A stretch of 29,275 bases of DNA. Origin: Coleofasciculaceae cyanobacterium RL_1_1. Its GTDB lineage: Bacteria; Cyanobacteriota; Cyanobacteriia; Cyanobacteriales; Geitlerinemataceae. This document shows positions 1,788 to 28,130 of this stretch, in pieces. The stretch lies in assembly GCA_012033105.1 (NCBI GenBank), contig JAAUPN010000024.1, forward strand, positions 1 through 29,275, read 5' to 3'. Numbering within the stretch: position 1 is the first letter of the stretch; every line of letters starts with the position of its first letter. Under the pieces are notes generated by a model. The model made no database searches, was not told the origin of the DNA, and worked only from the letters and a program-made list of their open reading frames with translations. Position numbers and translations under genes: made by a program.

Positions 1788-1905
1788 ATACGAAATCCGG
1801 TTCTATATGAGAAAAATACAAAATACTTATGAGCACTGAGCGGAGTCGAAGTGCGGTGTCCACCTAGAGCGACGATCTAAGATTATGCACAATCGGATTT
1901 CGTAT
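1788..1905. repeat. 118-bp unit bounded by a 12-bp perfect inverted repeat (atacgaaatccg / cggatttcgtat) enclosing repeat copy A
   Basis: The inverted repeat can be read directly. It lies in the intergenic region upstream of ureD. Confidence 0.4.
1831..1857 (+). repeat. structured short repeat copy A (gagcactGAGCGGAGTCGAagtgcggt)
   Basis: It shares the GAGCGGAGTCGA core with four other loci. The 5-bp stem is gcact/agtgc. Confidence 0.6.
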
Positions 1906-1984
1906 CATACCCTCGAATTCCGAATATGCCACGGATCAACCCCTTGCATTGTTCCGGATTTCCCGCTATTTCTTCATCTTCCTT

Positions 1985-2938
1985 ATGACCGACTCCCAAA
2001 GCTGGCACGGCACGCTTGAACTGCACTACCGTCCGGGCGACGCCGCCCAACACGATCGCACCCGCCTCCTCCGATCGCGCTCGACTGCACCCTTCAAAGT
2101 CCAGCGATCGTTTTATCCCGAAGCCAGCGGCATTTGTCACACCGTCGCCCTCCACACCGCAGGCGGCATCGTCGGCGGCGATCGCCTCAGCCAACACATT
2201 CACTTAGAGCCCGATGCTCAAGTCCTAATCTCCACGCCTGCTGCGACCAAGGTGTACGGCAGCCGGGGACGATCGCGGCGATCGCCAGACGGGATCAAAG
2301 CCGGTCAAGCGGTCTCGATTCGTCTCGAACCGGGAGCCTATCTCGAATGGCTCCCCCAGGAAACGATCGTCTTTGATGGCGCGGTGTTTCAGCAAGATGT
2401 ACGGGTCGAACTGGCGGCGGGGGCAACCTGGTGCGGCTGGGATATTGTGCGGTTTGGGCGAACGGCGCGGGGTGAAGGGTTTGCGCGGGGAACCTGGCGA
2501 TCGCGAACCGAGGTGTATCGCGACGGCTTACCACTGTGGATCGATCAGCAAGTGCTGGATCTCAGCGCCGATCAAACCCGCACAGATCAGGATGAACAGC
2601 ACAGCGACAAGCCCGAACGCGAAGCTCGCGCCAACCATGACACCTGGCAGAGCTACCACGGCTTAAACCAGATGCCCGTAGTCGGAACCTTGATCTGGAT
2701 GGGTACGCCGATCGACCCCAATTCCAGCGCAGACTTAATCAGCGCAGCACGATCGGCATGGCAAGATCTTGATCCCGGCGATGGTTCCGAAGCCGGGGTC
2801 AGTACCACGATCGATGGAATCATCTGCCGTTACCGTGGTCGTTCGACGAGCAAAGTGCGACACTGGTTTACGTCCGTCTGGCATCTGCTGCGTACCACCC
2901 AACGCGGCCAAACGGCACACTATCCGCGCATTTGGTAA
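1985..2938 (+). CDS. ureD: urease accessory protein UreD
   Basis: The motifs [30 protein letters not shown] and ...[10 protein letters not shown] match the conserved UreD N-terminal core. The start is probably the internal Met (MTDSQSWHG). Confidence 0.85.
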
Positions 2939-2952
2939 CTTCCCCACCGGCC

Positions 2953-3255
2953 ATGCAACTTTCCCCCCAAGAAAAAGACAAGCTGCTGATTTTTACCGCT
3001 GCCCTGGTTGCAGAACGGCGGCTCGATAAAGGCTTAAAGCTCAATTATCCCGAAGCGATGGCCTACATCTCGGCTGGCATTTTAGAAGGCGCACGCGAAG
3101 GCAAGAGTGTTGCAGAACTCATGGAGTACGGCACGACGCTCTTGGGTCGCGATCGGGTCATGGACGGCATCGCCGAGATGATCCACGAAGTTCAAGTCGA
3201 AGCCACCTTTCCCGATGGTACAAAACTCGTCACCGTCCACGATCCCATTCGCTAA
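2953..3255 (+). CDS. ureA: urease gamma subunit UreA (100 aa)
   Basis: [23 protein letters not shown]...[24 protein letters not shown] is the canonical UreA sequence. The length is typical. Confidence 0.9.
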
Positions 3256-3272
3256 TCGCCTGTTTCTGAGCG

Positions 3273-3325
3273 AAAAAAACACCTCGGTTGAGTGACGAAT
3301 ACATCATCAAAACCGAGGTGTTTTT
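3273..3325. terminator. bidirectional intrinsic terminator between convergent ureA and prk
   Basis: A perfect 11-bp stem (acacctcggtt / aaccgaggtgt) has an A-run on the left flank and a T-run on the right flank. It lies exactly between the ureA stop and the prk stop. Confidence 0.6.
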
Positions 3326-3388
3326 CATGGCTTGATCGCAGGTTGTAAGCCGCGACGTGTGCAGCATCACACGCTATAGCACGATCGT

Positions 3389-4393
3389 TTAGACGCTCAC
3401 GGCAACCTTTTTGCTTTTCGCGGTCAGGCGGTTGAAGGTGGTGCGCATCTTGAGGCCGACAATCATTTGGAACAGACCCGTGCCGTCATTTGCACCGGGA
3501 TAGTCCTTGTGTTTCAGCAGCAAGTGAGCCAATTCGCCGTGGTATTTCGCCGAGGTGTTGCTCAGGTGGCTCTCAACGTAGATCATTTCTTCGAGGTTGT
3601 CGAATTTACCATCGACTTCCACGATCGAGACATCGTGACCGTAGTAGCTATCGGGACCCGAGAACAGGCGAATACCGGGGTAAGAACAGGTCAACTTGCG
3701 ACCGCACGGCGTCCAATGAATCGTCGAACCCTCATCAAAGAGATACACCGGCTCCAGACCTTCCACGTCATTGCGTTGGATGAGACGAACGCGCAGCGTT
3801 TTATGCTCCTTATCGTCATCCAGCAGCTTCGTCGGCAAAATTTGGACGACCACATCTGCATGTTGCTTTTGCGGGTCGATGTAGGCTTCAAAGTCCGGGC
3901 GACGCGCTTCGATCGAGGCAAGAACGTCTTCATAGGTGTGACCCCGTTCAGCCATATCGCGTTGGATTTTCCAAGCGATTTTAACTTCGTCGCTGATATC
4001 GAGGTAGACACTAAAGTCGAGCAGTCCGCGCACACGCTCGTCATAAATCGGGTGTAGACCTTCGATGACAACGATGTGGTTCGGATCAATACGCTCCGGA
4101 GGATCGAGTTCGCCAGTCTCGTGGTTATAGATAGGCTTCATGATGGAGTTGCCTTCCTTCAGCGATTTGATCTGTTCGTACATCAGATCAAAGTTGTTCG
4201 CCTTCGGATCAAGGGCGGTGACACCTGCGGCTTTGCGTCCTTTCCGATCGAGGCTGTGGTAGTCATCTAGACAGATGATGGTTACCATTTCCTCGCCAAA
4301 CAGATCGAACAGTCGGCGTAAGAACGTCGATTTACCGCATCCGGAGTCTCCGGCAACGCCAATAAGAACCACGCGATCTGGCTTCGTGCTCAT
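3389..4393 (-). CDS. prk: phosphoribulokinase
   Basis: A P-loop GVAGDSGCGKSTF is followed by the cyanobacterial PRK sequence (DDYHSLDR, NHIVVIEGLHP, two Cys in the N-terminal region). The 334-aa length is typical. Confidence 0.9.
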   Translation of the reverse strand: MSTKPDRVVLIGVAGDSGCGKSTFLRRLFDLFGEEMVTIICLDDYHSLDRKGRKAAGVTALDPKANNFDLMYEQIKSLKEGNSIMKPIYNHETGELDPPERIDPNHIVVIEGLHPIYDERVRGLLDFSVYLDISDEVKIAWKIQRDMAERGHTYEDVLASIEARRPDFEAYIDPQKQHADVVVQILPTKLLDDDKEHKTLRVRLIQRNDVEGLEPVYLFDEGSTIHWTPCGRKLTCSYPGIRLFSGPDSYYGHDVSIVEVDGKFDNLEEMIYVESHLSNTSAKYHGELAHLLLKHKDYPGANDGTGLFQMIVGLKMRTTFNRLTAKSKKVAVSV

Positions 4394-5100
4394 GTTGTTC
4401 CTCTAAAACGATTTTTTTGTCTACTAGCAACTCAATTCGAGCAAGCTGAACTCAACCTCTTGGGATGCTGCCCTAGAGTTCGCGATCTTGTCAGGGATAC
4501 GCTCAGTACTCAGTACTCGGAAGTATTTATTCCGCATTAGTCGCCTCTGACCGGCTCCGTGGAGTGGCAGGTGTGCGACCCGATCGATGTGGTCTGATCG
4601 CAGTCAATCTAAATTACATCGACCGTACTATACGTTGGCTTGTCTGTTAAGCGTTTAGTCTTAAGTGTGCGATAAATTCTACCAAAAGGGGATCGACGCT
4701 ACAAGGGTAGAAAAGCGAGAAAAAAGACATCGATCAGCCTCGGAATCTGACAGCACAATTTGGGCGATTGATACCTACGATCTTTTCTTTCCCGTCCACG
4801 TCCCCCAAAGTGGACATAATTGTGTGTCGATCCATTCATTCCCATTCTGTAATCACAGTAACAAAAACGTTGACAAAAGCAATATCTTTGGTGTGGTAGT
4901 GTCGTCTGATGAAAGCGTGTCCTCGTAAAGCGCTCTGCGATTTCAGTCCGTATTTCGTGGCGATACTGTGGGTCTTTAGCCCTACGCTCTGCCTTGATCG
5001 CGCTTGATCGCGGCTCGCCTTGACGGCGGCATGGCGCTTCCATGACCCTGTTTTATGACTTATACCGACGACCATCACGCACCTAGCTCAATGACGTACT
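4394..5100. promoter_or_regulatory. about 700-bp divergent promoter/leader region between prk (-) and the LysR regulator (+)
   Basis: No convincing ORF is present. It contains a GAGGAACAAC Shine-Dalgarno sequence ahead of the prk ATG and a short tcagtac x2 direct repeat. Confidence 0.4.
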
Positions 5101-6099
5101 ATGTCTGACCTTCCGTTTACGTTAGATCAGCTCCGGATTCTGAAGGCGATCGCATCGGAAGGGAGCTTTAAGCGTGCTGCCGACAGCCTCTACGTGTCAC
5201 AACCAGCGGTTAGCTTGCAGGTACAAAACCTCGAACGCCAGCTTGATGTGCCGCTGTTTGATCGGGGTGGACGGCGAGCGCAACTGACCGAAGCGGGTCA
5301 CTTACTCCTGAGCTACGGGGAGAAGGTGCTAACCCTTTGTCAGGAAACCTGTAGAGCGCTCGAAGATTTACAAAATTTACAAGGGGGTACGCTGATTGTG
5401 GGCGCGTCCCAAACGACGGGAACCTATCTGCTGCCTCGCATGATCGGTGTATTTCGCCAGCTTTACCCGGATGTGGCGGTGCAGCTTCACGTGCATTCAA
5501 CGCGGCGCACGTCCTGGAGTGTGGCGAATGGCCAAGTGGATTTGGCGATCGTCGGTGGCGAAATGCCATCGGATTTGCAGGAATCACTAGCGGTCGTCCC
5601 CTATGCCAAGGATGAGTTAGCGCTCATCCTGCCGGTATCTCATCCGCTGGTGAAGGCGGAGGTGATCGAAAAAGAGGATTTGTACAATCTCCAGTTCATC
5701 ACCCTTGATGCTCAATCGACGATTCGTAAGGTGATCGATCAGGTGCTGTCTCGTAGCGGCATCGACACGACGCGGTTGATGTTTGAGATGGAGTTGAATT
5801 CGATCGAGGCGATCAAAAATGCGGTGCAGGCCGGTTTGGGGGCGGCGTTTGTCTCGGTTTCGGCGATCGAGAAGGAGCTAGAGATGGGCGTGCTGCACCA
5901 TGCCAAGGTGGATGGAATTGTGGTGACGCGGACGCTCAACGCGATTTATAACCCGAATCGCTATCGATCGAAGGCAGCGGATGCGTTCATTCACGAAGTG
6001 CTACCAGAGTTTGCAACGGAAGAAATCGATCCGGAATCGAGTTTATTTCGCCATAGCTCTAGCAGTAAGCGATCGGCGCGAAAATTAAAGCGACCCTAA
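5101..6099 (+). CDS. rbcR: LysR-type transcriptional regulator of the CbbR/RbcR (Ycf30) family
   Basis: The N-terminal [45 protein letters not shown] is the strongly conserved RbcR/Ycf30-type signature. A LysR substrate-binding domain follows. The gene is divergent from the Calvin-cycle gene prk. Confidence 0.65.
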
Positions 6100-6251
6100 C
6101 CACCACCTCGCTACAAAGCTTGGCGGATCTTCACTGTTGCTCTGTGATGTTCACTAATGTTTATGAACATTCACGGACATCGGCGAGTTTGCTAAGGTTG
6201 GATCGAGAGACGTGATGCGTGTCTTCTGCTGGCAAAAACAACGCTATATAA

Positions 6252-8512
6252 GTGAGGTTTGGATCGATGTTGTATTGGTTTACGCTCCTACAAACCCTGC
6301 TGGCGTTGCTGCCCGGATCATTGCCGATCGCCGGCCTTTCCCGATCGCCCCAGGACACCGTCCATCAATCCCTCCCCGCTGAGTTGCGGACGACACCGAA
6401 TCGCAGTCACCCGCACAACTCGATCGCCGTCACCTCGATCGCAACCACGGAACCCACAAATACAAAGACCCAATTTGCTCCACAGCTAGAACTCAAACTT
6501 GCCCAAATCGGAGCCACAGCGATTCTGAGCAGTACAGCGATCGGCATTGTGGGGATCATCGTCCTACTGCTCATTAGCTTTTGGGCTTATACCCGCGTCT
6601 ACCAAATCACGCCGAATAACGAAGCCTTTGTGCGTACCGGTGGCTTTCTCGCCAAGAAAAACACCGTCATTCTCTACGGTGGCTGCATCGTGCTGCCCGG
6701 TTTCCACGAGCTAACCCGCGTGCCGATGCGTGAGATCACGATCGACGTAGAACGCACCGGTAACCTCGCCGTCCGCACCCAAGACTATCTCCGCGCCAAC
6801 ATGCGCGTTACATTTTACGTCTGCGTGAATCACGACGAACAGGACGTAAAAACCGCAGCGGCTCGCCTTTCCAAAGATGGCAGCATTTCCCCCGCGCACA
6901 TCAAAGAAGCCCTGGAGAAACGCGCCGATGACGCGATTCGTGCCGCCGCAAAACGCAAAACCTTAGCGGAAATTGACTCAGATAAGTTAGGTTTTGCTGA
7001 CGAAGTTTTAAATCTAATTCAGCAGGATTTAAAAAAGGTTGGATTGACGCTCAACAATATTGCAATTTCAGAAATTGAAGAGAGCGACACCTACGACACC
7101 AATAACTTTTTTGATGCTCAAGGCGTGAAGCTGCGAACCGAAACAATTCAGAAAGCGATTCAGCAAAAAGAAGAGGTCGAGCTGACCACCGAGCAGGAAC
7201 GGCGGGATTTCCAACTGACGACACAGCTCAAAATTAAACAGCAGGAAATCGAAGCACGAAAAAAAGCGCTAGAACTCGAACAAGATGAAGAAGATGCTCA
7301 ACTCCAGCAACAGCTAGAAGTTGAAGCGTTACGAGCGCAACGAGTCCGCGAAATTCAAGACGCGAAGGACACGGAAGCGGCGAACCAAGAACGTACGAAG
7401 ATTTTGCAGCAGCAGTCGATCGAGGAGGAACAGATCCGCAAACAGCTAGCGGTACAGGAAAGCGAAATTGCAGCCGAGATCGCCCTTGAGGAGCAGAAAA
7501 AGAACTTAAAAATTGCTCAATCCACCCAGAAGCAAGAGGCGGAAATGGCGGAAATTGCCTATCAGCAGCAGGTGATGGAGTCGCAGATCGCCTCGGATAT
7601 CGCCCTCGAAGAGCAACAGAAAAAATTCAACGTCGCGAAGACGAAGCAGCAGCAGGAAGCTGAAGTTGCAGAAATTCAGCGCAAGCAAACGATCGAGGCC
7701 AACCAGATGGCGGCAGCGGCAAAGGTCGCCGAGGCACGGCAGTTATCGGAAGTGGCGAAACAGGCGGCGGAAATTGCGATCGCGGAGAAAGAGCAGGAAC
7801 GGCTAGTCGCGGAAGCACTACGGGCGCGGGCGGAAGCAGCGGTGATGACGGCGACGGCCTTGGAGCAGGCGGAACGGGAACAGCAGTTGGTGGCGATCGA
7901 GGCGGAACGAGAGGCGGCGAAACAACGAATCGCCGATAATACGTCGTGGAAATCGAAGTGTTCCGGCGGCGTCGCCAAGCGGAAAGCGCTCGACAGGCTG
8001 CCGATCTCGAAGCGGAATCCATCCGCACGTTAGCCGATGCCAATCGTGAGAAAGCCCTGGCGGAAGCGGAGGCAGAAGAGGCCAAAATCCGAGCGGGAAA
8101 TGCGATCAACACGGCAAACCTGGCGGCAGAGTTGATCCGCGAGATTGCACCGCAGTTGGTCAAAGAGTTACCGGCGATCCTGAAGGCGCTCGCCCCTCAG
8201 CCCGGAGTGTTGGGCGATGCCAAGATTTACTCGTTTCCAAGCGGTGCGGGCAGTGCGGATGAGATTGGCAAGTTGATGTTATCGACGAGCGGCATGACGG
8301 TGTTGAATTCGCTTTTGGAAGAGGGTCAGATTGTGCAGTGGATCGACACGGCGATCGGGGCGTTGCGTGCGAGCGGGACGGAGATTCCGGCATCGCTGGA
8401 GACGCTAGCAACGAAGGTGCAAGCATCGACGGGATCAACTCGATCGACAGGCGATCGAGCGATCGTCACGCCGCCACCGGCATCATCCGAAGCCACGGGC
8501 GATCTCGGTTAA
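6252..8512 (+). CDS. flotillin-like SPFH/band-7 membrane protein with a long E/A/Q-rich coiled coil; apparent frameshift near 7935-7950 (ORFs 6252..8033 and 7946..8512)
   Basis: A TM helix is followed by an SPFH core and then 250+ aa of EA/Q-rich heptad repeats. The C-terminal segment AEAEEAKIRAGNAINTANLAAELIREIAPQLVKELPAIL is typical of flotillin/YqiK proteins, and it continues in another frame. Confidence 0.75.
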
Positions 8513-8557
8513 CCACAAATCTAAAGTGCAAATCTAGAACAACCGAGGTGAATACGG

Positions 8558-9570
8558 GTGAATTCTGCCTTTCCCGTCACCCATTCCATTCTGTCGGTTC
8601 CGGCGCTGCTGGCGAAAATCGCGGTGGACTACGCGATCGGCCCGCCGATCGACGGCCATTTACTTCAGCTTGGTCTGAACGATACGTTTCGGCTACGGAC
8701 ACCGGCGATCGTCTACATCGCGCGAGTCTATCGCCACGGCTGGCGCACCCGCGCCGAAATCCTCTACGAGTTGGAGGCATTGCGACACCTACAGGCGCGA
8801 GGGATGAAGGTGGCCGCGCCGATTTTGCGTCGGGATGGCGAGCTGATCGGCGAGCTGGATGCGCCGGAGGGGGTGCGTTATCTCGTGTTATTTGACTATG
8901 CCGAGGGTGAGGAGCCGTGTTATGACGCAGAGACTGGCGCGGCTCAGTCGGGTGATCGTCGATCGGATGTGTATCTGTATGGTCGATCGGTCGCGCAGGT
9001 ACATCGGGCAAGTGATGATTTTGCCTGCGATCAACCACGTTTTACGCTGGATTTAGATTATTTACTGACCCATTCACTATCTAAAATTCAGCCGTTTTTA
9101 TCGAATCATGCGGCGGTTTGGGATGAGTTAGTGAGTTTGACAACACGTTTGCGCCAAAAGCTGAAAAACTGGCCGATCGAGCATTTAGAAACGGGGTTTT
9201 GTCACGGGGATTTCAAGGTGGGAATGCTCATATTCAGCCCGCAGATCGATCGCTGACGTTGTTTGATTTTGACTGTTGCGGTCGAGGGTGGCGGGCGTAC
9301 GATTTGGCGGTGTTTCGCTGGAATGTGGCAGTGAATGGTCTGCCGCTGCGGGTGTGGGAGGCGTTTTTGGCGGGGTATCGGGCGGAACGGGCGATCGCGG
9401 CGATCAATCTGGCGGCGATTCCGTACTTTGTGGCGGTGCGTCAGGTGTGGATTATGGGGTTACACTGCGGGAATAGTGGAGATTGGGGAGTGGGTTGGTT
9501 GAATGGGCGATATTTCGCGCGATCGTTGAATTTTTTGCGAACTTGGGAAACGAATGAATTCCCCTCGTAG
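8558..9570 (+). CDS. aminoglycoside phosphotransferase (APH)/kinase-like fold family protein; frameshift near 9215-9225
   Basis: The catalytic HGDF motif sits at the end of ORF 8558..9256. The expected continuation GGNAHIQ...LTLFDFDCCGRGWRAYDLA, which contains the DFD/DxD motif, is in the overlapping ORF 9199..9570. Start codon is GTG with GAGGTG upstream. Confidence 0.6.
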
Positions 9571-9591
9571 GGTGGGCAATGCCCACCCTAC
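9567..9591. terminator. perfect 11-bp stem-loop (gtagggtgggc aat gcccaccctac) overlapping the APH stop codon
   Basis: The inverted repeat can be read directly. No U-tract follows, so it may be a processing or stability hairpin rather than a classic terminator. Confidence 0.4.
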
Positions 9592-9603
9592 TCAGAGCAT
9601 ACT

Positions 9604-9632
9604 GAGAGCGTTGAGCGGAGTCGAAACGCGGT
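9604..9632 (+). repeat. structured short repeat copy B (gagagcgttGAGCGGAGTCGAaacgcggt)
   Basis: The core is the same. The stem is gcgtt/aacgc, which compensates for the change relative to copy A. Confidence 0.6.
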
Positions 9633-9740
9633 TCCGGGGAAAGCAAAATAGAGTCAGGATATTCCGTTTTTTATTGCTATATCCGCTGACTGTATATGCG
9701 TGATGGTGGGCAATGTCCGAAAATTGTGGATGAATACGAA

Positions 9741-9772
9741 TTGATCGCCCTACAACTTGATCGCCCTACAAC
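9741..9772. repeat. perfect 16-bp tandem duplication (ttgatcgccctacaac x2) spanning the DUF218 gene stop codon
   Basis: It can be read directly. Confidence 0.5.
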
Positions 9773-10491: not shown

Positions 10492-10611
10492 CAGACAGGT
10501 CAGACCGAGCGGGTAGACAACAACGGTAAAAGCTTGGACAGGAACAGAAACATGATGGCGGTTAACGCTAGGCTAAACGGTGTTGATGATTGTGGTCTAA
10601 ATTAGGTCGGT

Positions 10612-11325: not shown

Positions 11326-11401
11326 ATGTTGTGAATCGTAAGTCAATATCGTCATTCGAGTGAAGCACGAGATATCTTGACCTAGCTGGTCGAACTCAAA
11401 G

Positions 11402-11475
11402 ACCGCACTTCGACTCCGCTCAGTGCTCTTTCGACTCCGCTCAGTGCTCTTTCGACTCCGCTCAGTGCTCTTCGG
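11402..11475 (-). repeat. repeat copy C: tandem array of 3 x 21-bp units (tttcgactccgctcagtgctc) ending in a full stem-bearing unit
   Basis: The 21-bp period can be read directly. The array lies between the hypothetical gene and wecB. Confidence 0.6.
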
Positions 11476-18443: not shown

Positions 18444-18700
18444 AGGGCAAACGCATACTCAGTTTTCATCGCAAATCAAGTCGGGGTTCGAGCACTGAGC
18501 TTGTCGTTGGCGCAGCCTTCGCTTTGCGAATAGTGCGGCCACTTCCTACGAAAATCGCCAGCCTTCGACCAGCTCAGGCGGGACTTACGCAGAAGTCCGA
18601 CTTCTAAACGAAACGTCGTCGTTCTAACTCTCAGAACAACGGGAGAAGTCGGACTTCTCACACCCCTTGCGTAAGTCCCGGTGGGGTATGCGTTTGCCCT
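18444..18700. repeat. 257-bp nested inverted-repeat (MITE-like or structured-RNA) element
   Basis: The outer inverted repeats are perfect 15-bp terminal inverted repeats, agggcaaacgcatac at 18444-18458 and gtatgcgtttgccct at 18686-18700. Inside them are 27-bp arms (cgggacttacgc-agaagtccgacttct) with a 10-bp bulge and an inner 5-bp hairpin. Confidence 0.5.
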
Positions 18701-18756: not shown

Positions 18757-20275
18757 TTAGCCGGTACGCCAGACCAGTTTTAAACGGAGTAACCAACGGG
18801 TAAACAGGGCGACGAAGAGTGTGTAGACGATCGCCCGCATCATGGCTAAAACGGGCGCTTGGGTGAGTAAGCTCAACCCTGGATGGAGGCGCGTCAGATT
18901 AAACAGCGGGAGCAGCACATTGGCATAGGCGACGTAGGCCACCATGGGATTGCGGCCATTGTCGATCGCCAGTTGCAGCCAGCGCCGTGTCTGAAAGGGT
19001 TGATCGAAATCCTCGATCGCGATCGTCAGATTCACCCACAAAAACAGCGACATCGCGACGGTAATGAAAAAGTAGCTTAGGGTCGGTGGATCTTTGTGAA
19101 TGCCGTCTTGAAACGGTTCAAAAATAGCCCCAGGATCAGCCAATACGATCCCCAGCGGATGAGCTGCGAGCGAAATCGATCGCGAGCGGCGAGGGTTGTT
19201 CCACGGGGTAGGCTTGCGAGGATGATCACCATGCCGCCGATCGCGATCGTCGTCGTCAGTCCGACCCAACGCCCTTGTAAACCGACCAGTAACACCAGTA
19301 ACATCACGCCCAATAGCTTGGCGATCGCCAACCAACGCCAGCGAGAGACCCGAGGAATTTCGACCTCGCGACTCGTCTCCAGCGCTCGATCGCGCCAGTA
19401 GCGCAGCAGCAAATCGCCCGCGATCGTTCCCGGCACGACGATCAACAGATATTGCAGATATTCCACCCGAAACAGCCAGGGGATCGGCGAACCATTCCAC
19501 AGTGACATAACCCAGCCGTCCGCCGTCGCCGATATTCGCAACGCCAACAGCAACACCAACGCCCCCGAGCCGCCACCGACCATCGCGATCGCGTCACCAG
19601 CCACAGCAGCGAGCCGCCCAGCGACGAGACCGCCAACAACATTAAAATCACGTCTTGCCGTGCCAGATCAAACCCGGTATCGTCACGAAACGGCAGGATC
19701 GCCAGCAAAACCACGATCGCCAGCCAGCCGCCAAGCTTGGCCGCGATCGGCAGCCAGCGAGGACACCGCGATCGCCAGGATTGCGGCCAACGCACATACA
19801 CCAACGTCAACAGCCCAAACCCAAGTAGCGTTAACCCCCAGGTGAGATCCGTGGGTTTGGCGCTGAGGTGGTTTGGGCGGAAATGTTGCAGGACGATCGC
19901 GAAGGCGCTGAGTTCGAGCCAGCGGCGGGCGATATCCCCAAGAAGACGGGCGATCGCGATCGGAGTTAACGGACGATCACCGACGAGGCGATCAATTCGC
20001 CGCGACAGTGCGAGCGGAATCGAGACGCCCATCACAAACAAAAACAGCGGAAACACCCAATCCACCCAAGTCAAACCGGGCAGCAGGGGATCAAAAATAA
20101 AATCGGGGGGCGCGACCTGGGCGTGATACATCCAGGCTGGCAGCGGCGGTTTGCGGGGAACCAGCCCGGAAAAGACCATCATCAAGACCGCAAGACCGCG
20201 CAGGGCATCGAGGGCGTCGGCGCGATCGATGCCAGGGTTAACCGAGGTGGACTCCGGAGGCGGTGAATCGTGCAT
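18757..20275 (-). CDS. DUF1624/DUF5009 (HGSNAT-like) polytopic membrane protein with C-terminal extension; two apparent frameshifts (about 19560-19600 and 19080-19130)
   Basis: Three overlapping minus-strand ORFs (19442..20275, 19077..19604, 18757..19500) are each hydrophobic and in different frames. The N-terminal motifs LDALRGLAVLMMVF and VDWVFPLFLFVMGVSIPLA are typical of DUF1624. Confidence 0.5.
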
Positions 20276-20353
20276 AGGTTAATGCCGTGGGAGCATCGAA
20301 TAGAACATCGAACCCGTGACCACTGCACTAACCTCTCACCCAACGCTCAAGGA

Positions 20354-20512
20354 TTATTGAAAGAAGAAGCCAGACAGTAACAAGGGAACGATTAATAGTG
20401 CCACGACAATGACCGTTAAGGTGGTGGGATCAACGTCGATTTCGATCGGCGGAACCGGCGTTTTTTCGCGCGTGACAACATCAGGCGAGGTCGAACGGGT
20501 AGGGGTGCTCAT
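20354..20512 (-). CDS. candidate small protein (52 aa) with a C-terminal TM helix, translationally coupled to hisH
   Basis: Hand translation gives MSTPTRSTSPDVVTREKTPVPPIEIDVDPTTLTVIVVALLIVPLLLSGFFFQ. Its ATG overlaps the hisH stop (ATGA at 20509-20512). It is below the 60-aa cutoff of the ORF track. Confidence 0.3.
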   Translation of the reverse strand: MSTPTRSTSPDVVTREKTPVPPIEIDVDPTTLTVIVVALLIVPLLLSGFFFQ

Positions 20513-21139: not shown

Positions 21140-21240
21140 AGTTCGGTATTGAAGGCGGGATTAAGGGGCGGATTGTGGGCGGTGATTAACGCGATATCAC
21201 GCGATATCGCTGGGCTTCACCAGAGGTCGCTCAAGTCGCG

Positions 21241-21265
21241 AACACTAGTTGCTAACACTAGTTGC
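21241..21265. repeat. direct repeat aacactagttgc x2 (each with a palindromic ACTAGT core) overlapping the GNAT stop codon and upstream of hisH
   Basis: It can be read directly. The position is consistent with an operator site or a slipped duplication. Confidence 0.35.
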
Positions 21266-22421
21266 GATCGCCGTGGGCGTTATCGGAGTTATTTTCCTCT
21301 TTGTAGCTTTCCAGCTCGTATAAATGCTGAAGCCAACGACTGGGAATCGGCTTACGCGCCGGTTGGAAACCACCGAGAACATCTGACAGTTGTAAACCAT
21401 CCAGGGTGACTTGCTTGGTTTCGCGTAGCTTGTGCCACACCGATCGCGACATGAGCTGCGTATGCTCCACCGGACGCGCACCGACGCGCTGGAAAAATTC
21501 CTCGCGCTCGGTTTGGTAGTCCGCCGAGGTGAGCCGCAACGACTGCGCCGGAAGCTCGCGCGTCACCCGCGCCATCTGTGCCAACAGCTCGGGATAGAGC
21601 CAGGTGTAGGCCGGATGCACGGTGAGTTCGGCGCGGTGGGGAAAGGTTCCTTGCTGACTGAGCTGCATGTGGAAATAGCCGATCGCCGCTTTGCGTTGTG
21701 GCTCGAACACATAGCCCGCCACCGAATCGGTTTTGCTCATCCAGCGCTTGAACCCATCCATCAGCGAGTCAAACAAGCTCGTTTTGAAGTCGCACACGTG
21801 GCGATCGTACACCTGACGCACGTGGGGCAACATCGACGCCGTATCAAGTTGATAGAGCAGCGAGGCATCGGAGTTGTTCACGGGCATCAGATTCGGCAAA
21901 TCTGGTTCACGCTGACTCAGCTCTGCCAGCAGATCGGCGCTAAAGTCCCAGTGGGTCACCTGCGTCAGACATTGAAAGCCGTTTTGACGATAAATCGCCA
22001 TCGCGTCGGCGTTGCTGACCTTGACCTCGGCCAGCCAGGTTCGCGCTTTCCACAGGTTTTGTAAACAGTGGCGAATTAAGGCAGTGCTGGTATCCTGAGC
22101 GCCACAGCTCGGATCGGCGATGAGCCGATCGATCCGCCAGGTGGTCGCGCCACGGTTGGACGGCGAGACCTGAACGGCTCCCTGAATTTGGCGGTTTTTC
22201 TCCGCGACAAAGACGGAAAACAGGTGTTGATAGTGCGTTGGTAGCCAGCTCAGGCAGGTGAGTAGGCCGTAGTAGCTACGGATGCGATCGAGGTGCGTGG
22301 CGAGGTCGAGAATTGAGCTGGAACTGCGGGCAGTCAAAGCTTGAGGCAACAGCGCTTCGATCGCATCGAGATCGCGAAATTGCAAGGCACGGATATCGAG
22401 TTTGTGAGAATCGAAGGTCAT
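21258..22421 (-). CDS. GNAT-family N-acetyltransferase domain protein (387 aa)
   Basis: The central segment AVQVSPSNRGATTWRIDRLIADP...ALIRHCLQ....AEVKVSNADAMAIYRQNGFQ resembles GNAT motifs A/B. The rest is unassigned. Confidence 0.55.
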   Translation of the reverse strand: MTFDSHKLDIRALQFRDLDAIEALLPQALTARSSSSILDLATHLDRIRSYYGLLTCLSWLPTHYQHLFSVFVAEKNRQIQGAVQVSPSNRGATTWRIDRLIADPSCGAQDTSTALIRHCLQNLWKARTWLAEVKVSNADAMAIYRQNGFQCLTQVTHWDFSADLLAELSQREPDLPNLMPVNNSDASLLYQLDTASMLPHVRQVYDRHVCDFKTSLFDSLMDGFKRWMSKTDSVAGYVFEPQRKAAIGYFHMQLSQQGTFPHRAELTVHPAYTWLYPELLAQMARVTRELPAQSLRLTSADYQTEREEFFQRVGARPVEHTQLMSRSVWHKLRETKQVTLDGLQLSDVLGGFQPARKPIPSRWLQHLYELESYKEENNSDNAHGDRN

Positions 22422-22585
22422 ACTAAAACAGTGATGAGCGTCAAAGCGCGATCACCAACCCCAATCTAAATGACGAACGTTTACAACTTAAGATCGACAT
22501 CGATAACCCACGCATATTCCTTTATTATCTCGTGTCTTGAGATTCTTGCATCAAGATTGAGATTAAGCCTGATCCCAGGCTGGAT

Positions 22586-22626
22586 CTCAAGCGGGCTTGA
22601 TCGCATCGAGAGGACGCCCGCTTGAG
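22586..22626. terminator. 11-bp perfect stem (ctcaagcgggc / gcccgcttgag), 19 nt downstream of the CofE-like gene stop
   Basis: The inverted repeat can be read directly. The loop is long and there is no clear U-tract. Confidence 0.35.
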
Positions 22627-22644
22627 CGTTGCGATCGCCAGCGC

Positions 22645-23217
22645 TTAACGCAGCTTCGGACGCACGAGTACCACTGGCGTTTGCTCGTCCGCATTCCCGG
22701 CGGGATTGCTCCGCAGCGCATCTTGCAGGATGCCGTCAATCTTGGACGAGGACGACGCCAATACCTTCACGGCCTTGAGGTCATTCACATCGACGATCGC
22801 AGCTTCTAAGCCCGTTTCACGCTTGATGCGATTCACCAGACCTTGGGCATCATCAGGACCCAGCACAATGAAGCGATCGTAAGGCGGCAGCGTACCCGTC
22901 ACGTCATCGATCAAACGCGCCTGATCGCCTGCGAGTTGGTAAAACACACCGGGACGCCCGAAAATTTTGGCGATCGCGCCGATCGCAAAGGCGAAACCCA
23001 CCCGCCACGCGCCGGACACATCCACCAAGGTTTGCAGCCCGCACACCGTCGCGAGGCTCGATGTGGGCAAGAAGAAATAGCACAGGCGTTTCGCCAGCCA
23101 GCCCGGTTTCACGTCGGCGGGGTAACGCCAGCGCTGCTGCATGATCGCAATCGGGGTTTCGCCGATCGTCACAATGTCGCCCTCCTTCGAGTGGGGCAGC
23201 ACGTAACGGCGCACCAC
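22645..23217 (-). CDS. CofE/FbiB-like domain (COG1478, F420-0:gamma-glutamyl ligase family) protein. The frame stays open upstream to 23382 without any start codon.
   Basis: The motifs GDIVTIGETPIAIMQ, VDVNDL, VLASS and NPAGNADEQTPVVLVRP match the conserved CofE blocks. The only candidate start is GTG at 23217, which would truncate the N-terminal part of the domain. Confidence 0.55.
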   Translation of the reverse strand: MVRRYVLPHSKEGDIVTIGETPIAIMQQRWRYPADVKPGWLAKRLCYFFLPTSSLATVCGLQTLVDVSGAWRVGFAFAIGAIAKIFGRPGVFYQLAGDQARLIDDVTGTLPPYDRFIVLGPDDAQGLVNRIKRETGLEAAIVDVNDLKAVKVLASSSSKIDGILQDALRSNPAGNADEQTPVVLVRPKLR

Positions 23218-23240
23218 TTCGACGGGATCATCAAGATGGG

Positions 23241-23840
23241 TCAGCAGGTGGGTTTTGACGGGGAAACCTGGGCGCGATCGCGATCGAGCCAGTTCGGCGG
23301 GGCATTGCGATCGGGATAGTCCAGCGGCACAACCGCGTGACCAATTTTCGGGATACGTCCGGCGGGGCCGTAGGTCATGTAGTTAAACCGTAGCCAAACC
23401 GTTTTGAGGCAATCAAGATTCGAGCCGGTCAGCTCGATCGAGATCTTGACCCCCGTGCTGTACTTCGCTTTGACGATATAGGCAAACCAGTAGCCATCCT
23501 CACGGGCAGGCGCATCAGGATGTTGGGGTGTGATCCGAATATCCGACTCGATCGCGTGCAGATCCGCGCCGCCCAGCAACGTCACCTCCGCCGATACCTC
23601 GGGGATCATGACTTCCAGCGCGTCCGTGGCGTTGTACAACTCGGTTTCACCGACGAGCAACACCCGATCGGCGCTCCGCTCGGCGATCGTCCACTGTCCG
23701 GGCTTAAACACCAGCTCATTCCCCTGGCGCTGACGATACTTCGCCTCAAACCCCAGCAGCCCAAGGCCGATTGCACCTACGACCGCTCCGGCTCCTACTG
23801 CAATTCCTGTTGCGATCGCACGATATGGACTCTCCCTCAC
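23241..23840 (-). CDS. hypothetical protein with an N-terminal TM helix; possibly the N-terminal part of a fusion with the CofE-like domain through a frameshift at 23265-23290
   Basis: It ends inside a gcgatcgcgatcg HIP1 doublet, where the CofE-like frame is already open. I recognise no motif. Confidence 0.4.
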   Translation of the reverse strand: MRESPYRAIATGIAVGAGAVVGAIGLGLLGFEAKYRQRQGNELVFKPGQWTIAERSADRVLLVGETELYNATDALEVMIPEVSAEVTLLGGADLHAIESDIRITPQHPDAPAREDGYWFAYIVKAKYSTGVKISIELTGSNLDCLKTVWLRFNYMTYGPAGRIPKIGHAVVPLDYPDRNAPPNWLDRDRAQVSPSKPTC

Positions 23841-23999
23841 ACCGACAAAATACTCAACCGTTTATACCATTAGGCTTTACCAATGACTATTGTTCGATGT
23901 TTTTTCAGGCAGGACTTGCGCACTGACCGGCTAGAACCATGCAATACCGTGGGCGCATTGCCATGACGCCCCTACGAGTTTCGATAGCGAGGTTGACGG

Positions 24000-25822
24000 C
24001 TACGGCAGCAATGGTGACGGGTCTTGCGTTTGCAGCGTCGAACGCTTAAAAGCCTGGATAGCATAGCGAACACGGTTCAGTTCTGAGATCACGCGTTTCA
24101 CATCATCTTCTAGATCAACGTGATCGAGATTATGCGTTTTTAACTGTTGCTCTACGCCAATAATCAGTCGTTCTAACGTCTTCGCGCCGATATTCGTCGA
24201 ACCACCACGCAAAATATTAACTAAATAGAACGACAGATCGCGATCGCCAAGCTGTTGAGCCGATTGTAATTGCGACTCAAAATTCGCGTGAGTCTGGAGG
24301 AAAACATCCAGCAATTCTTGATACAGTTGTGCATCGTGATCGCAACGTTCTAAACCCGCTTCAACATTCAAAGCGAGCAATTGCGCCATCTCTTCATTCG
24401 CACAACAAATACAATTACGCCCCTGCTCCTTCGCCTGGAACAATGCCGCATCTGCCGCTAAAACAATCTCATCGGATGACGTGCCGACTTGCGGAAGACT
24501 CGACGCTACCCCCATACTGACTGTGATGCGATCGCTCGATCATGAGTGCTATGTTCGAGCGCAAGATCGGCTAAGTTTTTTTGAATCTGGCGAGCCAGAT
24601 AAATGGCTCCGGGAGCATCGGTATTGGGCAAAACAATGGTGAACTCTTCACCACCATACCGTGCCACAAAATCTGTCGGTCGATTCACTGATTGTTGCAG
24701 CAACTGAGCGACCTGAATGAGGCATTGATCACCTTGGGGATGACCATAGGTATCGTTATAGAGCTTGAAATAATCAATATCAAGCATGATGATTGATAGA
24801 CTCTGCTGCTCGCGTTGTAATCGTCGATATTCGCGATCGAGATAATCGTCTAAAGCTCGACGATTCGCAATTTTCGTCAGGCCATCTAAGTTACTCAATC
24901 GCTTTAATGCTACATTGGCTAGCTTCAAACTGTGATGTAAATTAGACTGCTGAATCGCAATGATGAGCTGGGCAATAACGGGCTCTAGTAGCTCTAAATT
25001 AATTGCATTCATCATCGCTTCTTGACCATGAATGAGCAGAATGCCCCAAAGTTGAGAATCTTGGATGATGGGCAGACGATACTCCGCCTCGATTTGGCAA
25101 CGTTGAAACCAATCGCGATCGCTCAGGGTTAAGTGATTGGGATCGGTTGTGGAGTGAATATACGGCTGATGATCGAGGGGAGCTGCAATGGGATAGTTTG
25201 CGTTTTGTAATGCGGTATCGGTCGAAGCGACAATCACCGGGGCTTTGCTTGAGGGGTAGCGAGCGATCGCAATGCGATCGGCGCCGAGTAAATTTTGGAG
25301 GTTATTGACGGTCGTTGAGAGAATCTGTTTAAGCTGAAGCGAGCCATGAATTTCTGTGACCAATTCGCGCAGAATTGATTCTTGCTTCGCTTTCAGTTGA
25401 GCTTGATGACGTAATTTTGCCAGTTCAAGATGATTCGTAATCCGAGCAATTAGCTCTTCCGTCCGAAAGGGTTTGGTCACATAGTCGCCCGCACCAACGG
25501 CAAAGGCTTGCTGTAAATGACTCACATCATTACTAGCGGTGAGAAAAATAACGGGGATATCGGTAGTAGCAGGATGTTGCTTGAGCTGCTTACAAACTTC
25601 TAGGCCATTCATCCCTGGCATCATTAAGTCTAATAGGATTAAGTCCGGTACAATCTCTGTTGCTCTTTCCAGTGCCTGGACGCCATTCATTGCAAATGTT
25701 AATCGGCACTTAAAGAACGAGAATTTTCCTCTTAAAATCTTGAGATTTTCAGGGATATCATCGACCAGTAATAACAGGGGTGATTTACTTCCTTCCGGTG
25801 ATAAATAATGCCGGTGTTTCAT
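24000..25822 (-). CDS. response regulator REC - GAF - GGDEF with a C-terminal Hpt-like domain; frameshift near 24505-24540
   Basis: The REC domain reads LLLVDDIPENL...DLILLDLMMPGMNG...TKPF. The GGDEF motif reads RYGGEEF. The ITVSMGVA block spans the frame junction. The C-terminus LVNILRGGSTNIGAKTLERL looks like an Hpt motif with Asn in place of the phospho-His. Confidence 0.8.
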
Positions 25823-25829
25823 GTTTGAT

Positions 25830-25854
25830 AATAAACAAAGATTTTTTGTTTATT
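25830..25854. promoter_or_regulatory. perfect 10-bp palindrome (aataaacaaa gattt tttgtttatt) 8 nt upstream of the REC-GAF-GGDEF start codon
   Basis: The inverted repeat sits in the 5' UTR/RBS position of the minus-strand gene. The surrounding 70 bp are AT-rich. Confidence 0.4.
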
Positions 25855-25887
25855 TACTTTCAGATAGAATTGATTAATCTAATTTTA

Positions 25888-26843
25888 CTATTGTCCTGAT
25901 CGTGTTTGACGGCTCTTGAGAACTCGCAGGAGTTTGTCAAATACTGACGGAGGATCGGCGATCGCGGCGATTTCCTGGCCGGTACGCGGGTGGCGTAGGG
26001 TTAGTTTCCAGGCGTGCAGGGCTTGGCCGGGGAGGTTGACGCCGATCGTTTGGGCGGAACTGTAGAGCGGGTCGCCGATAATTGGGTGACCGATCGCGGC
26101 ACTGTGGACGCGGATTTGGTGGGTGCGTCCGGTTTCGAGGCGAAAATGAATCAGGGTGTAGTTTCCGAGGCGATCGATGACATCCCAGTGGGTGACGGCC
26201 AAACGTCCCCCATGCTCAATGTCTAAGATGGTCATCTTTTGCGATCGGCAGGATGGCGTCCGATCGGTAAATCGATCATGCCGTGATCTTCGCGAGGGGA
26301 ACCGTAGACGAGGCCGAGGTATTCGCGGCGTGCGGTTTTGGCGGCGATCTGTGCCTGGAGGTGCTGATGGGCGAGGTCGGTTTTGGCGACGACGATCGCG
26401 CCGGTGGTGTCTTTATCGAGGCGGTGGACGATGCCGGGGCGTTGGGTTCCACCGATGCCGGATAGTTTGCCCTGGCAGTGATGCAGCAAGGCGTTAACTA
26501 AGGTGTCCTGGGTATGGCCGGGGGCGGGATGAACCACGAGGCCGACGGGTTTATTAACGATCAGCAGATCGTCATCTTCGTAGAGAATATCGAGGGGCAG
26601 ATCGAGCGGAATCAGAGCATCGAGGGGTTCGGCGTCGGGGATGGTGATTTCGAGTCGATCGCCGGGTTTGAGCTTCTGTTTTTTTTGGGTACAGGTGACA
26701 TCATTGAGGCGTACATGTCCTTGCTCAATTAGGCTTTGCAGGCGCGATCGGGATAAATCGTCAATGCGATCGGCGAGTAGGCGATCAAGGCGATCGGAGG
26801 TCTCTGCGATTAGGGTGATGGGGTCAGGCATGGCAAGGGGCAA
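25888..26843 (-). CDS. rluD: 23S rRNA pseudouridine synthase RluD (RluA family with N-terminal S4 domain); frameshift near 26230-26260
   Basis: The S4-like N-terminus reads RLDRLLA...SRSRLQSLIEQGHVRLN. The catalytic motif HRLDKDTTG is in the first ORF. The conserved C-terminal part (HGGRLAVTHW...HQIRVH) is in the second ORF. Confidence 0.8.
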
Positions 26844-26996
26844 AGGGCTCGATATTCTCGATATGATGGCCTAATAACTGGTGTCGCTTTCATCCGATAT
26901 TTCATTCAACCACAGCCACACAGCCACGCCGAACTTGTCTCGGGTTTTGTGTGCTGTTCAAGCCCTAAAAACCATGCTAATCAGGATGATCGATCG

Positions 26997-27851
26997 ATGA
27001 AACCGATCCGTACGGGAAAACTGCGTGTTGAACGCCTGACGATTCCTTTCGCCAAATTACCGCAACGACTGCATGGCCTCAAAATCGTCCAACTCTCGGA
27101 TCTGCACTACACCAACAGTCAGCTCTCCGATCGCCTGCTCAACCAGGCGATCGACACCGTGAACCGTAACGCCCCGGATATTATCGTCCTCACCGGCGAT
27201 TTTATTCACGATGAGCCGGAGCCGATCGACAGCCTAATCCCATTTCTCAAGCGGCTACACGCCCGCCACGGCATCTACGCCATCCTCGGCAACCACGATA
27301 TCTACCTGCCCGAAGCCCGCCATTACGTCACCCGAGCGCTGTCGCGGATTGGGATTTGTGTGCTGTGGAATCAGGTGGTGTATCCCGCTGGTGATGGTTT
27401 AGCCTTGGTGGGTCTCGCGGATCTGTGGTCTGGTGAATTCGACCCGCGCCCGTCTTTCGCGACCTCGATCCGGATGTGCCGCGCATCGTGTTGTCCCACA
27501 ATCCCGACACCGCCGAAACCCTGCGCCGCTGGCGTTGTGACCTGATCCTGTCCGGCCACACCCACGGCGGCCAACTTGTGTTACCGTTCCTTGGCCCTTT
27601 GCCGAAATACCTCGACTTTTCCGCTGGATCATTCCCAAGCCGCTCTATCCTTACCTGCCCCTGCTGGGGAAAGGGGACTACGTGACGCAGCACTGGGAAT
27701 GGGCGTCGGGGATGTTTCGCCTCGGTCGCAATCGGCTGTATGTGAATCGCGGTTTGGGGTCGTATTTTCCCGGTCGTTTTGGCTGTCCGCCGGAGGTGAC
27801 GGAGTTTGTGGCGATCGCCCAGCCCAATGCCCCGAAATACGGGTTTGATTA
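26997..27851 (+). CDS. calcineurin-like metallophosphoesterase; two frameshifts (about 27455-27480 and 27640-27650)
   Basis: The motifs run in the canonical order LSDLH, GDFIHD and GNHD in the first frame and ILSGHTHGGQ in the second. The conserved C-terminus YVNRGLG...PEVT is in a third frame. Confidence 0.7.
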
Positions 27852-27885
27852 AGAGTATTGCCCAAACATAATCGCCTCAAAAAAA

Positions 27886-28130
27886 GCTGAGAGCAATGAG
27901 CGGAGTCGAAGTGCGGTTCTTAACTGAGACGAGAGTGTCCTAATTTAGTCGGCTTGCATTCTATCAGGCATCATCGCCGATCTCAAGAAGTGCGACTTTT
28001 CTCAAAAGTCGCACTTCTACATCAGTCCGAAGTCTGATCGCGATAGTCAGTTCACCCAAAAAAGCAAGACCAGTTGACTCTGTTCTGTTTGCTCAAACAC
28101 CGCGTTTCGACTCCGCTCAACGCTCTCAGC
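27886..28130. repeat. 245-bp MITE-like composite element bounded by 33-bp terminal inverted repeats (repeat copies D and E) with a central perfect 15-bp hairpin at 27986-28018
   Basis: The left terminal inverted repeat is gctgagagcaatgagcggagtcgaagtgcggtt. The reverse complement of the right one is gctgagagcgttgagcggagtcgaaacgcggtg. The central hairpin is agaagtgcgactttt ctc aaaagtcgcacttct. Confidence 0.55.

Follow-up and report, generated by a model that had tools for sequence, protein, structure and literature searches.

We analysed a window of 29,275 nt from Coleofasciculaceae cyanobacterium RL_1_1 (assembly GCA_012033105.1, contig JAAUPN010000024.1, positions 1 to 29,275 of the forward strand) in which a 27-nt hairpin module, here named H, recurs in intergenic DNA. 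H consists of a variable stem of 4-5 bp that encloses a conserved loop of 11-12 nt, GAGC-N2-3-G(Y)CGA, where Y is T or C; in the window its consensus reads GAGC(A/G)(C/T)T-GAGCGGAGTCGA-A(G/A)(T/C)GCGGT. Copies of H flank genes for small stand-alone GIY-YIG nucleases in metagenomes and isolate genomes. We consider it somewhat probable that H and the nuclease form a repeat-plus-nuclease system like that of the repetitive extragenic palindromes (REPs), or their hairpin-forming doublets (REPINs), and the REP-associated tyrosine transposases (RAYTs), run by an unrelated enzyme, and that the H copies of the window sit in the centres of MITEs (miniature transposable elements with inverted repeats) and multiplied with them. 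The broader claim, that UPF0213/Slx1-like nucleases are dedicated partners of cross-phylum hairpin repeats, constitute a second, independently evolved REP-RAYT-like system and have the window copies as non-autonomous offspring in MITE centres, falls just short of being probable in our judgement.

An all-against-all comparison of the open reading frames (ORFs) of the fetched loci, which are designated below by L numbers, singled out an ORF of ~100 aa in loci of Eremiobacterota, Flavobacteriaceae and Sphingobacteriaceae. This shared ORF encodes a GIY-YIG domain protein (PF01541, E = 3e-16 and 7e-18) and is flanked by H in L086, L011, L052 and L062. The upstream copy of L086, GTCATCCT-GAGCTTGTCGA-AGGATGAC, lies ~30 nt before the ATG and an inverted copy lies at the stop codon, and some nuclease tails are translated through the hairpin (..PPFDSAQ.., ..HPSTSSG). 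For a blind test, 80 metagenome loci were fetched by protein similarity only, the query being an alignment of three proteins from which the hairpin-encoded tails had been removed. H was present in 67 of these 80 loci and lay no more than 150 nt from the gene in 65 of them. Its density within 0-150 nt of the nuclease gene was 5.3 per kb upstream and 5.9 per kb downstream, falling to 1.7-2.1 per kb between 150 and 300 nt away and to 0.08-0.5 per kb at distances above 300 nt; inside the gene it was 0, and shuffled sequence gave 0.0017 per kb. The orientation of the copies was likewise specific, plus copies prevailing upstream (46:15) and minus copies downstream (47:22). Complete H(+)-ORF-H(-) units of 320-566 bp were found in 31 loci, and their outer ends read TGTCA(Y)NNN-T-GAGC... 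or CCGTTCG...; within one unit, the stems at the two ends are often unlike, each end being self-complementary. Of the metagenome loci, 64 could be assigned an end type, and 61 of these had the outer 5′ motif, TGTCA(Y) or (C)CGTTCG.

The exact 12-mer of the window, GAGCGGAGTCGA, flanks GIY-YIG genes in L107, L114, L119, L124, L129, L134, L144, L153 and L233. Among isolate genomes, that of Sphingomonas parapaucimobilis has H on both flanks of the gene encoding WP_347092679.1, and that of Planktothrix agardhii has arrays of a sister hairpin, TGTCATTCTGAGTGAAACGAAGAATC, on the flanks of the gene encoding WP_083616022.1. Look-ups of exact proteins revealed 8-15 hairpins arrayed beside the gene, many of them having the exact loop of the window, and the largest arrays beside a nuclease gene comprised up to 15-35 hairpins. 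Nucleases with the same hairpin end type were 56% identical and those with different end types 47%, and the corresponding values for same and different loop classes were 53.6 and 50.5% (0 of 1000 permutations for each), both comparisons being confounded by host phylogeny. The linkage did not extend to 32 more distant viral homologues, for which 80 kb of sequence contained no H, nor was H found near a Xanthomonas plasmid gene or a decayed Sphingomonas paeninsulae copy. A comparison of L165 with L181 yielded no clean unit boundaries.

On the Planktothrix agardhii plasmid NZ_LR882964.1 (L187 1250-2050), the GIY-YIG gene is part of a defence island, with a MmeI-type restriction-modification gene on one side and drmA, the DISARM helicase gene, on the other. 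Another GIY-YIG gene, P0031 (113 contigs; L222 1550-1858, L225 699-1007), is located between hsdM and hsdS in a type I restriction-modification operon, and in L222 and L225 H copies form part of the translated sequence at the termini of adjacent ORFs and of a downstream ORF of 51 aa. The short-read (Logan) contigs L237-L242, which carry the GIY-YIG gene P0070, end 0-120 nt past the gene, exactly where an array of ~15 H copies spanning ~1 kb starts in the long contig L236; H repeats break short-read assemblies. The GIY-YIG ORF of L062 (930-1130) is interrupted by another cross-phylum hairpin repeat, GGTCATTCC...GGGAATGAC, which yields the spurious peptides VIPAKAGI and WIPAFAGMT. From this foreign repeat within a nuclease ORF it follows that hairpin repeats of several unrelated families occur together and that one family can insert into another.

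By sequence, the associated protein is a member of UPF0213 (PDB 1zg2, E = 2e-22, and also 1ywl). The associated proteins are 90-112 aa long and contain PF01541 only, their best PDB matches being UPF0213 proteins of 96-107 aa, and the extended DNA-binding region of I-TevI-type homing enzymes is absent from them. Slx1 cleaves branched and stem-loop DNA, which makes hairpin recognition by a UPF0213-type nuclease plausible. In thousands of genomes, stand-alone members carry the label ‘hypothetical’ or ‘putative endonuclease’. The family comprises at least 7904 clusters at E<=1e-10, annotated merely as ‘GIY-YIG nuclease family protein’ or ‘putative endonuclease’. Within the GIY-YIG superfamily, UPF0213 has been described as the minimal branch of Slx1-like proteins in bacteria and is seen as a group of vertically inherited repair proteins (Dunin-Horkawicz et al. 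2006, PMC1564403); YhbQ and YazA have been placed in the Slx1 family (PMC7017083).

Because circularity was to be avoided, the instances for the covariation analysis were drawn from the 80 protein-selected loci by the loop pattern alone, with no condition on the flanks, resulting in a set of 206 unique instances. In 88-92% of them, each of the four pairs adjoining the loop (pairs 1-4) was Watson-Crick or G.U, compared with means of 43-75% and maxima of 53-80% in shuffles, and 0 of 500 shuffles reached the observed values. A variety of pair types was encountered, such as CG 90, GC 63, TA 18 and AT 8 at pair 3, and from pair 5-6 outward pairing was at background. The formal covariation score was 0.512, compared with 0.195 ± 0.016 for shuffled and 0.13-0.17 for slid partners. 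The hairpin thus described has a closing pair T.A (or C.G) and 3-4 covarying pairs beside the loop, a scheme to which the window copies conform with 5-bp stems and one mismatch in copy D. An earlier note on this DNA had read the element as a hairpin under selection and not as a mere copied sequence, and the pairing and score given here bear this out. The same note had pointed to a compensating stem change between copies; pairing is indeed kept, but the window alone provides only one double compensatory event because its two stem variants fall into two sub-families.

To what extent H is distributed was examined by scanning one genome per species (596 Gb) with the pattern TGAGCGGAGTCGAANNGCGGT, in which 19 bases are specified and the variable arm positions are left free. 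The loop together with GCGGT was found in at least 106 stretches, compared with ~4 expected by chance. Among the matches listed, the H loop occurs with different, complementary stems in at least 14 phyla; about half of these matches came from two Geitlerinema metagenome-assembled genomes (MAGs) and the others from other cyanobacteria, Bacteroidota, Acidobacteriota, Desulfobacterota, Pseudomonadota, Planctomycetota and Spirochaetota as well as Fibrobacterota, Eremiobacterota, Verrucomicrobiota, Actinomycetota, KSB1, Binatia and Marinimicrobia. The arms pair as, for instance, ccct/aggg, cgct/agcg, catt/aatg, agtct/agact and cgttcgtt/aacgaacg, and the 99 unique instances comprised 46 arm combinations with at least 4 contiguous pairs in 86. 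The earlier expectation of copies beyond the window, with arms that differ yet remain complementary, therefore holds across these phyla. H appears as solos, as tandem arrays of 24 nt (L012, L041, L052, L053) and, in Cytophagales and Dyadobacter, as inverted doublets that make long hairpins. In the extra copies of the fetched loci, which are not forced by the pattern, loop variation is concentrated at core positions 5-7 and 9, the apex, leading to the family consensus T-GAGC-N2-3-G(T/C)CGA-A.

In the window itself, the core GAGCGGAGTCGA occurs exactly seven times, at 1838(+), 9613(+), 11410/11431/11452(-), 27898(+) and 28107(-), compared with ~0.3 occurrences by chance. At up to one mismatch there are 8 matches (0.34 expected by chance; 0 of 100 shuffles reached 8), and the additional match, GAGCGGAATCGA at 20012, was taken as chance because it lies within an ORF and has no complementary flanks. 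These counts agree with the ~28-bp element with an invariant 12-nt core that the earlier note had placed at five loci, and the arms that it had given for copies A, B, D and E are those found here. Its inventory was right for the five loci but missed the copies at 18490-18539(+) and 18565-18575(-), the 27-nt extent of the unit, the carriers and the nuclease link. The copies are as follows.

1831-1857, plus strand: H copy A, GAGCACT-GAGCGGAGTCGA-AGTGCGGT, with the 5-bp stem gcact/agtgc (5 contiguous pairs) and a 12-nt loop.
9606-9632, plus strand: H copy B, GAGCGTT-core-AACGCGGT, with the stem gcgtt/aacgc.
11402-11472, minus strand: locus C, three head-to-tail H units with a period of 21 (AGAGCACTGAGCGGAGTCGAA).
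18490-18539, plus strand: divergent H, GAGCACT-GAGCTTGTCG, followed by a 25-nt nested insert at 18507-18531 (TTGGCGCAGCCTTCGCTTTGCGAAT) and then AGTGCGGC.
18561-18579, minus strand: extra H, gcctGAGCTGGTCGAaggc, with the 11-nt loop variant cctGAGCTGGTCGAagg at 18565-18575 and a 4-bp stem.
27891-27917, plus strand: H copy D, GAGCAAT-core-AGTGCGGT, with the stem gcaat/agtgc and one A.G mismatch.
28099-28125, minus strand: H copy E, GAGCGTT-core-AACGCGGT, with the stem gcgtt/aacgc.

The array at locus C was also reported by Tandem Repeats Finder (11409-11472, 3.0 copies, 100% matches), and the 3′ arm AGTGCGGT is retained in its last unit only. On the 5′ side of the stem, the window copies read CTGAGAGC or TATGAGC (GAGAGC/TATGAGC). 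The two additional members, at 18490-18539 and 18565-18575, were recovered by a general pattern search. In the divergent copy at 18490-18539, the loop GAGCTTGTCG is split by the 25-nt insert, and this composite of H and insert recurs in L028 (1-50, 242-291) and L017 (3102-3160). The insert TTGGCGCAGCCTTCGCTTTGCGAAT (18507-18531) is a small hairpin in itself, TTCGC-ttt-GCGAA, so that the site presents a tiny repeat within a tiny repeat within a MITE. As the earlier note had stated, all copies are intergenic and occur on both strands, which was established from the ORF map and from Pfam searches of the flanking genes. Copy A is found upstream of ureD and copy C upstream of the UDP-GlcNAc 2-epimerase gene; the neighbours of copy B are an APH-family gene and a DUF218 gene, and copies D and E share the interval between a metallophosphoesterase gene and a FrhB-like gene.

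The carriers of H were defined by comparing the window, with BLAST, to loci of two Geitlerinema MAGs and by aligning the copies. The H copies of the window are embedded in longer repeated elements of ~85-130 nt, which belong to at least three MITE-like carrier families (A, D and E) and in which H is always central.

1788-1905, plus strand: A-type carrier of copy A, with the inverted ends CGAAATCCG (1791-1799) and CGGATTTCG (1894-1902).
9592-9676, plus strand: partial E-type carrier around copy B, with 65-nt arms, 82% complementary to 28075-28139.
11346-11401, minus strand: E-type right flank joined to the locus C array, matching L095, L055 and L019.
27876-27966, plus strand: D-type carrier of copy D, truncated at the 5′ end, with the right arm GTCCTAATTTAGTCGG present and the left arm CGATTnnnTTAGGAC missing.
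28043-28163, minus strand: E-type carrier of copy E, 78-89% identical to L004, L006, L032, L071 and L084.

Copies of the A-type carrier that are 77-94% identical occur at more than 20 Geitlerinema loci. Its ends, ATAC-GAAATCCGG...CCGGATTTC-GTAT, are common to 13 of 13 copies, with differing flanking DNA, and in the window the dinucleotide TA stands outside both inverted ends (1789-1790 and 1903-1904). The D-type carrier of the window is 84-94% identical to ~35 loci; full D-type copies (n=23) measure ~137 nt and have the ends TATAGC..CGATTnnnTTAGGAC / GTCCTAAnnnAATCG..GCTATA (TATAGC...CGATT..TTAGGAC / GTCCTAA..AATCG...GCTATA). The E-type sequence at 9592-9676 shows 76-87% identity to E-type copies in L004, L006, L032, L084 and others. 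As judged from the 13 A-type and 23 D-type copies, these two carriers are 112-137 nt long, contain no ORF and possess terminal inverted repeats. TA, a putative target-site duplication, is present on both sides in nearly all A and D copies; without an empty site it is not separable from an extension of the inverted repeats, and the one filled/empty pair agrees with a duplication. Chimeric carriers with D-type left and E-type right parts, or D-type left and A-type right parts, have their junction exactly at H.

Because two Geitlerinema MAGs differ by the presence or absence of 233 nt that include a D-type element, the carriers are or were mobile. The insertion (L095 2700-2935 versus L019) is composed of a 135-nt element (ends CTATATCCCTTTTCT / AAAAGAGGAATATAG) and an adjacent D-type MITE, which suggests preferred landing beside existing elements or at TA-rich sites. 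By their common MITE families, the Geitlerinema MAGs CAZFJL01 and JAABST01 are the nearest relatives; the fetched loci include no syntenic locus, and in the empty-site comparison of L054 with L002 synteny is broken there. The intergenic regions of this genome have been shaped by layered tiny mobile elements, that is, by repeats in repeats in MITEs.

In the repeat-plus-nuclease system that we favour, the nuclease would recognise H extruded from single-stranded DNA or from a cruciform, reading the sequence of the loop but only the shape of the stem, which would explain a near-invariant loop with covarying stems. Cutting at the extruded H, followed by repair or copying, could spread or maintain H, and the action of the nuclease at hairpins could give rise to solos, doublets and arrays. 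The genome of the window would contain a cognate gene. In such a Geitlerinema-like genome, H may have entered the centres of palindromic MITEs and then multiplied passively as a passenger, and slippage may have expanded it locally, as in the threefold array.

Several observations weigh against this reading. A tblastn search found no GIY-YIG gene in the window or in 53 Geitlerinema loci (~424 kb), and the H copies of the window lack the outer TGTCA/GTTCG motif that is typical of gene-end hairpins. As a single strand, H is no more stable than shuffles (-3.4 to -3.8 kcal/mol as DNA, z -0.7 to 0). That pairing is kept in so weak a hairpin is as expected for a structure that is captured by a protein or transiently extruded, and marginal stability together with both orientations, including inverted pairs, speaks for a hairpin recognised as DNA or by a protein and less for a functional RNA that stands by itself. 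Three exact nuclease proteins were each found at one fixed genomic neighbourhood across assemblies, so the gene behaves as a single-copy resident like RAYT and not as a multi-copy insertion sequence (IS). The association of H with the nuclease is a linkage without direction, and the gene might home into H sites. Finally, every A- or D-type MITE copy found already bears H or an H variant, and spread in this genome may need no nuclease.

The homing of the nuclease gene is the best of the alternatives, though in our estimate an unlikely one. Here the nuclease would be a homing-type selfish gene inside H doublets, with H as target or habitat and not as cargo, and the hairpins would have spread otherwise, be it by transposition of MITEs, by recombination or slippage, or through the action of some unknown enzyme. 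GIY-YIG enzymes are classic homing endonucleases (PMC1564403), the nuclease genes stand at fixed loci, and ORF-less inverted H doublets with short spacers (Cytophagales L046, L065, L083 and L101; L110) resemble empty H-ORF-H sites. However, the proteins are minimal nuclease domains of 90-110 aa without the long DNA-binding extension of I-TevI type, and 15-35 hairpins pile up beside the gene, as they do around RAYT genes. Moreover, the hairpins at the two ends of a unit have diverged independently of each other, with the pairing of each preserved, which argues that each hairpin is itself a recognised substrate.

Slightly less likely still, H could in this genome be an inert inner segment, devoid of a function of its own, of IS630/Tc1-type MITEs whose transposition, as A-, D- and E-type elements, fully explains copy number and distribution. 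Six of the seven window loci lie in or beside A-, D- or E-type sequence, and the inverted ends, TA flanks and missing coding capacity of the A and D families, the constant presence of H or a variant in their copies and the insertion polymorphism between MAGs all speak for it. The same 27-nt module nevertheless occurs in three otherwise unrelated carrier families and at the junctions of chimeras, it is also found outside carriers, in the tandem array and in the solo copy at 18565, and its loop appears with other stems in ~14 phyla (among the matches listed) that are without these MITEs. Inert hitch-hiking accounts for the local copy number, but not for the origin or the conservation of H.

A functional structured RNA serving host expression, such as an mRNA 3′-end stabiliser, a processing site or a protein-binding hairpin, is improbable. 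The stem covaries and the window copies are all intergenic and close to gene ends; the loop, read from the sequence by eye, could lengthen the helix through tandem G.A/A.G and a G-C pair. Yet folding energies are no better than those of shuffles, no U-tract terminator follows any inspected window or cross-phylum copy, and copies lie on both strands relative to genes, inverted around one gene, in arrays, in MITEs and even in translated ORFs. Rfam 15 returned nothing relevant, whether the window was searched at the gathering threshold or the repeat regions and 12 loci at permissive ones.

Very improbable, lastly, is a REP/REPIN family moved by a RAYT (HUH-Y1 TnpA_REP) transposase: H is short, intergenic and palindromic, forms inverted doublets and spans Cyanobacteria, Bacteroidota and other phyla, a distribution reported for RAYT subclass 2.4 (PMC6006769), but in the window and cross-phylum copies the foot of the hairpin is not preceded, at 0-2 nt on its 5′ side, by the tetranucleotide GT[AG]G (rule: PMC6006769), the loop of 11-12 nt and stem of 4-5 bp lie outside the REP rules of a 2-5 nt loop and a basal stem of >=7 bp (7-20 bp; PMC6006769), the motif is absent from the accessible part of the REP tables of PMC6006769, a weak regular-expression screen of 2742 ORFs from 107 sources gave no HUH-Y1 signature, and the gene really flanked by H is the GIY-YIG gene.

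With GTAG foot, stem and loop geometry, RAYT screen and REP tables all negative, membership of H in the REP family was rejected. In a by-eye comparison, the hammerhead core (CUGANGA...GAAA), the tRNA T-arm/acceptor half (reverse strand), group II intron domain V and the K-turn did not fit the conserved positions, and a tRNA/tmRNA scan of the window found none.

Compared with known systems, H paired with its nuclease most invites a parallel to the REP-RAYT ‘REPtron’ of Enterobacteria and Pseudomonas. Both comprise short intergenic hairpin repeats in many copies, arranged as solos, inverted doublets and clusters, that are densest on either side of a single small nuclease gene at a fixed locus, and in both the repeat sequence varies by lineage while the hairpin shape is kept. 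They differ in the enzyme, since the GIY-YIG (UPF0213/Slx1-like) protein is unrelated to HUH-Y1, and in the conserved part, which in H is the loop of 11-12 nt above a stem of just 4-5 bp and not a 5′ GTAG foot; furthermore, the H loop is common across phyla, whereas REPs are species-specific. Nostoc punctiforme reportedly contains hairpin-forming small dispersed repeats (SDR4-6) of 21-27 nt, nested and tandem, to which no enzyme has been assigned. So described, they are like H in being cyanobacterial, dispersed, nested and tandem hairpin repeats of that size, but H is not confined to cyanobacteria and is linked to a nuclease gene. The A and D carriers resemble IS630/Tc1-mariner MITEs in length (112-137 nt), non-coding nature, terminal inverted repeats, TA on both sides and polymorphism between related genomes; H, by contrast, is an internal 27-nt module of unrelated carriers, for which no cognate transposase was identified, no full-length IS search having been made.

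IS200/IS605 ends and the origin hairpins of HUH Rep proteins are, like H, small DNA hairpins recognised by a nuclease, and Rep origins also combine a conserved loop with a free stem. Their enzymes belong to a different class, however, and no transposase-sized or Rep-sized protein accompanies H; in addition, the hairpins of IS200/IS605 occupy the same strand at either end, whereas the two end copies of H are inverted relative to each other. The H-associated protein is a minimal GIY-YIG domain of the same family as eukaryotic Slx1 and UPF0213 (YazA, YhbQ; PDB 1zg2, 1ywl), but B. subtilis yazA has no H nearby. With the GIY-YIG homing endonucleases (I-TevI, Seg proteins) the nuclease shares the catalytic fold, and the known ones are selfish and tied to a specific DNA site. 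In contrast to it, I-TevI and the Seg proteins have long DNA-binding domains and long duplex targets in genes or introns and are not known to be tied to dispersed hairpin repeats.

In the literature searched, we found no repeat association reported for the UPF0213/Slx1 family, no text linking GIY-YIG proteins to REP-, REPIN- or MITE-like hairpin repeats and no previous implication of this enzyme class in a repeat-nuclease partnership. GIY-YIG is not mentioned in Weinberg 2017, and full-text searches for the core and its reverse complement produced unrelated primer matches only. If the link is functional, it would provide a role for a very large family of small nucleases, two structural-genomics structures of which are still labelled hypothetical, and a second repeat-plus-nuclease partnership beside REP-RAYT, through which the ways that intragenomic sequence populations arise and persist could be compared. 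If true, this would be the first class of bacterial repeats or mobile elements driven by a GIY-YIG enzyme. For biochemical work it would supply a candidate DNA hairpin nuclease with specificity for both sequence and structure, and it would account for hairpin repeats that break short-read assemblies and create ORFs that are spurious or too long, the PPFDSAQ and HPSTSSG tails being examples.

Further repeats were noticed next to the H copies of the window. An inverted repeat of ~105 nt at 18578-18682 (gggacttacgcagaagtccgacttc ... gagaagtcggacttct..gcgtaagtccc) adjoins the two extra H copies and resembles a palindromic MITE-like element. Between copies D and E, a perfect 13-bp hairpin, gaagtgcgacttt-tctca-aaagtcgcacttc, is located at 27985-28019, with no T-run after it. 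The APH-family phosphotransferase gene at 8558-9570 consists of two overlapping ORFs (8558-9256 and 9199-9570), maybe owing to a frameshift or as a pseudogene, and is directly followed by a GC-rich hairpin, gggtgggcaatgcccaccc, at 9571-9589. The same intergenic region as copy B contains an exact 2 x 16-nt tandem repeat, TTGATCGCCCTACAAC, at 9741-9772. Across the window, short direct repeats are led by the HIP1-like GCGATCGC, which fits cyanobacterial DNA.

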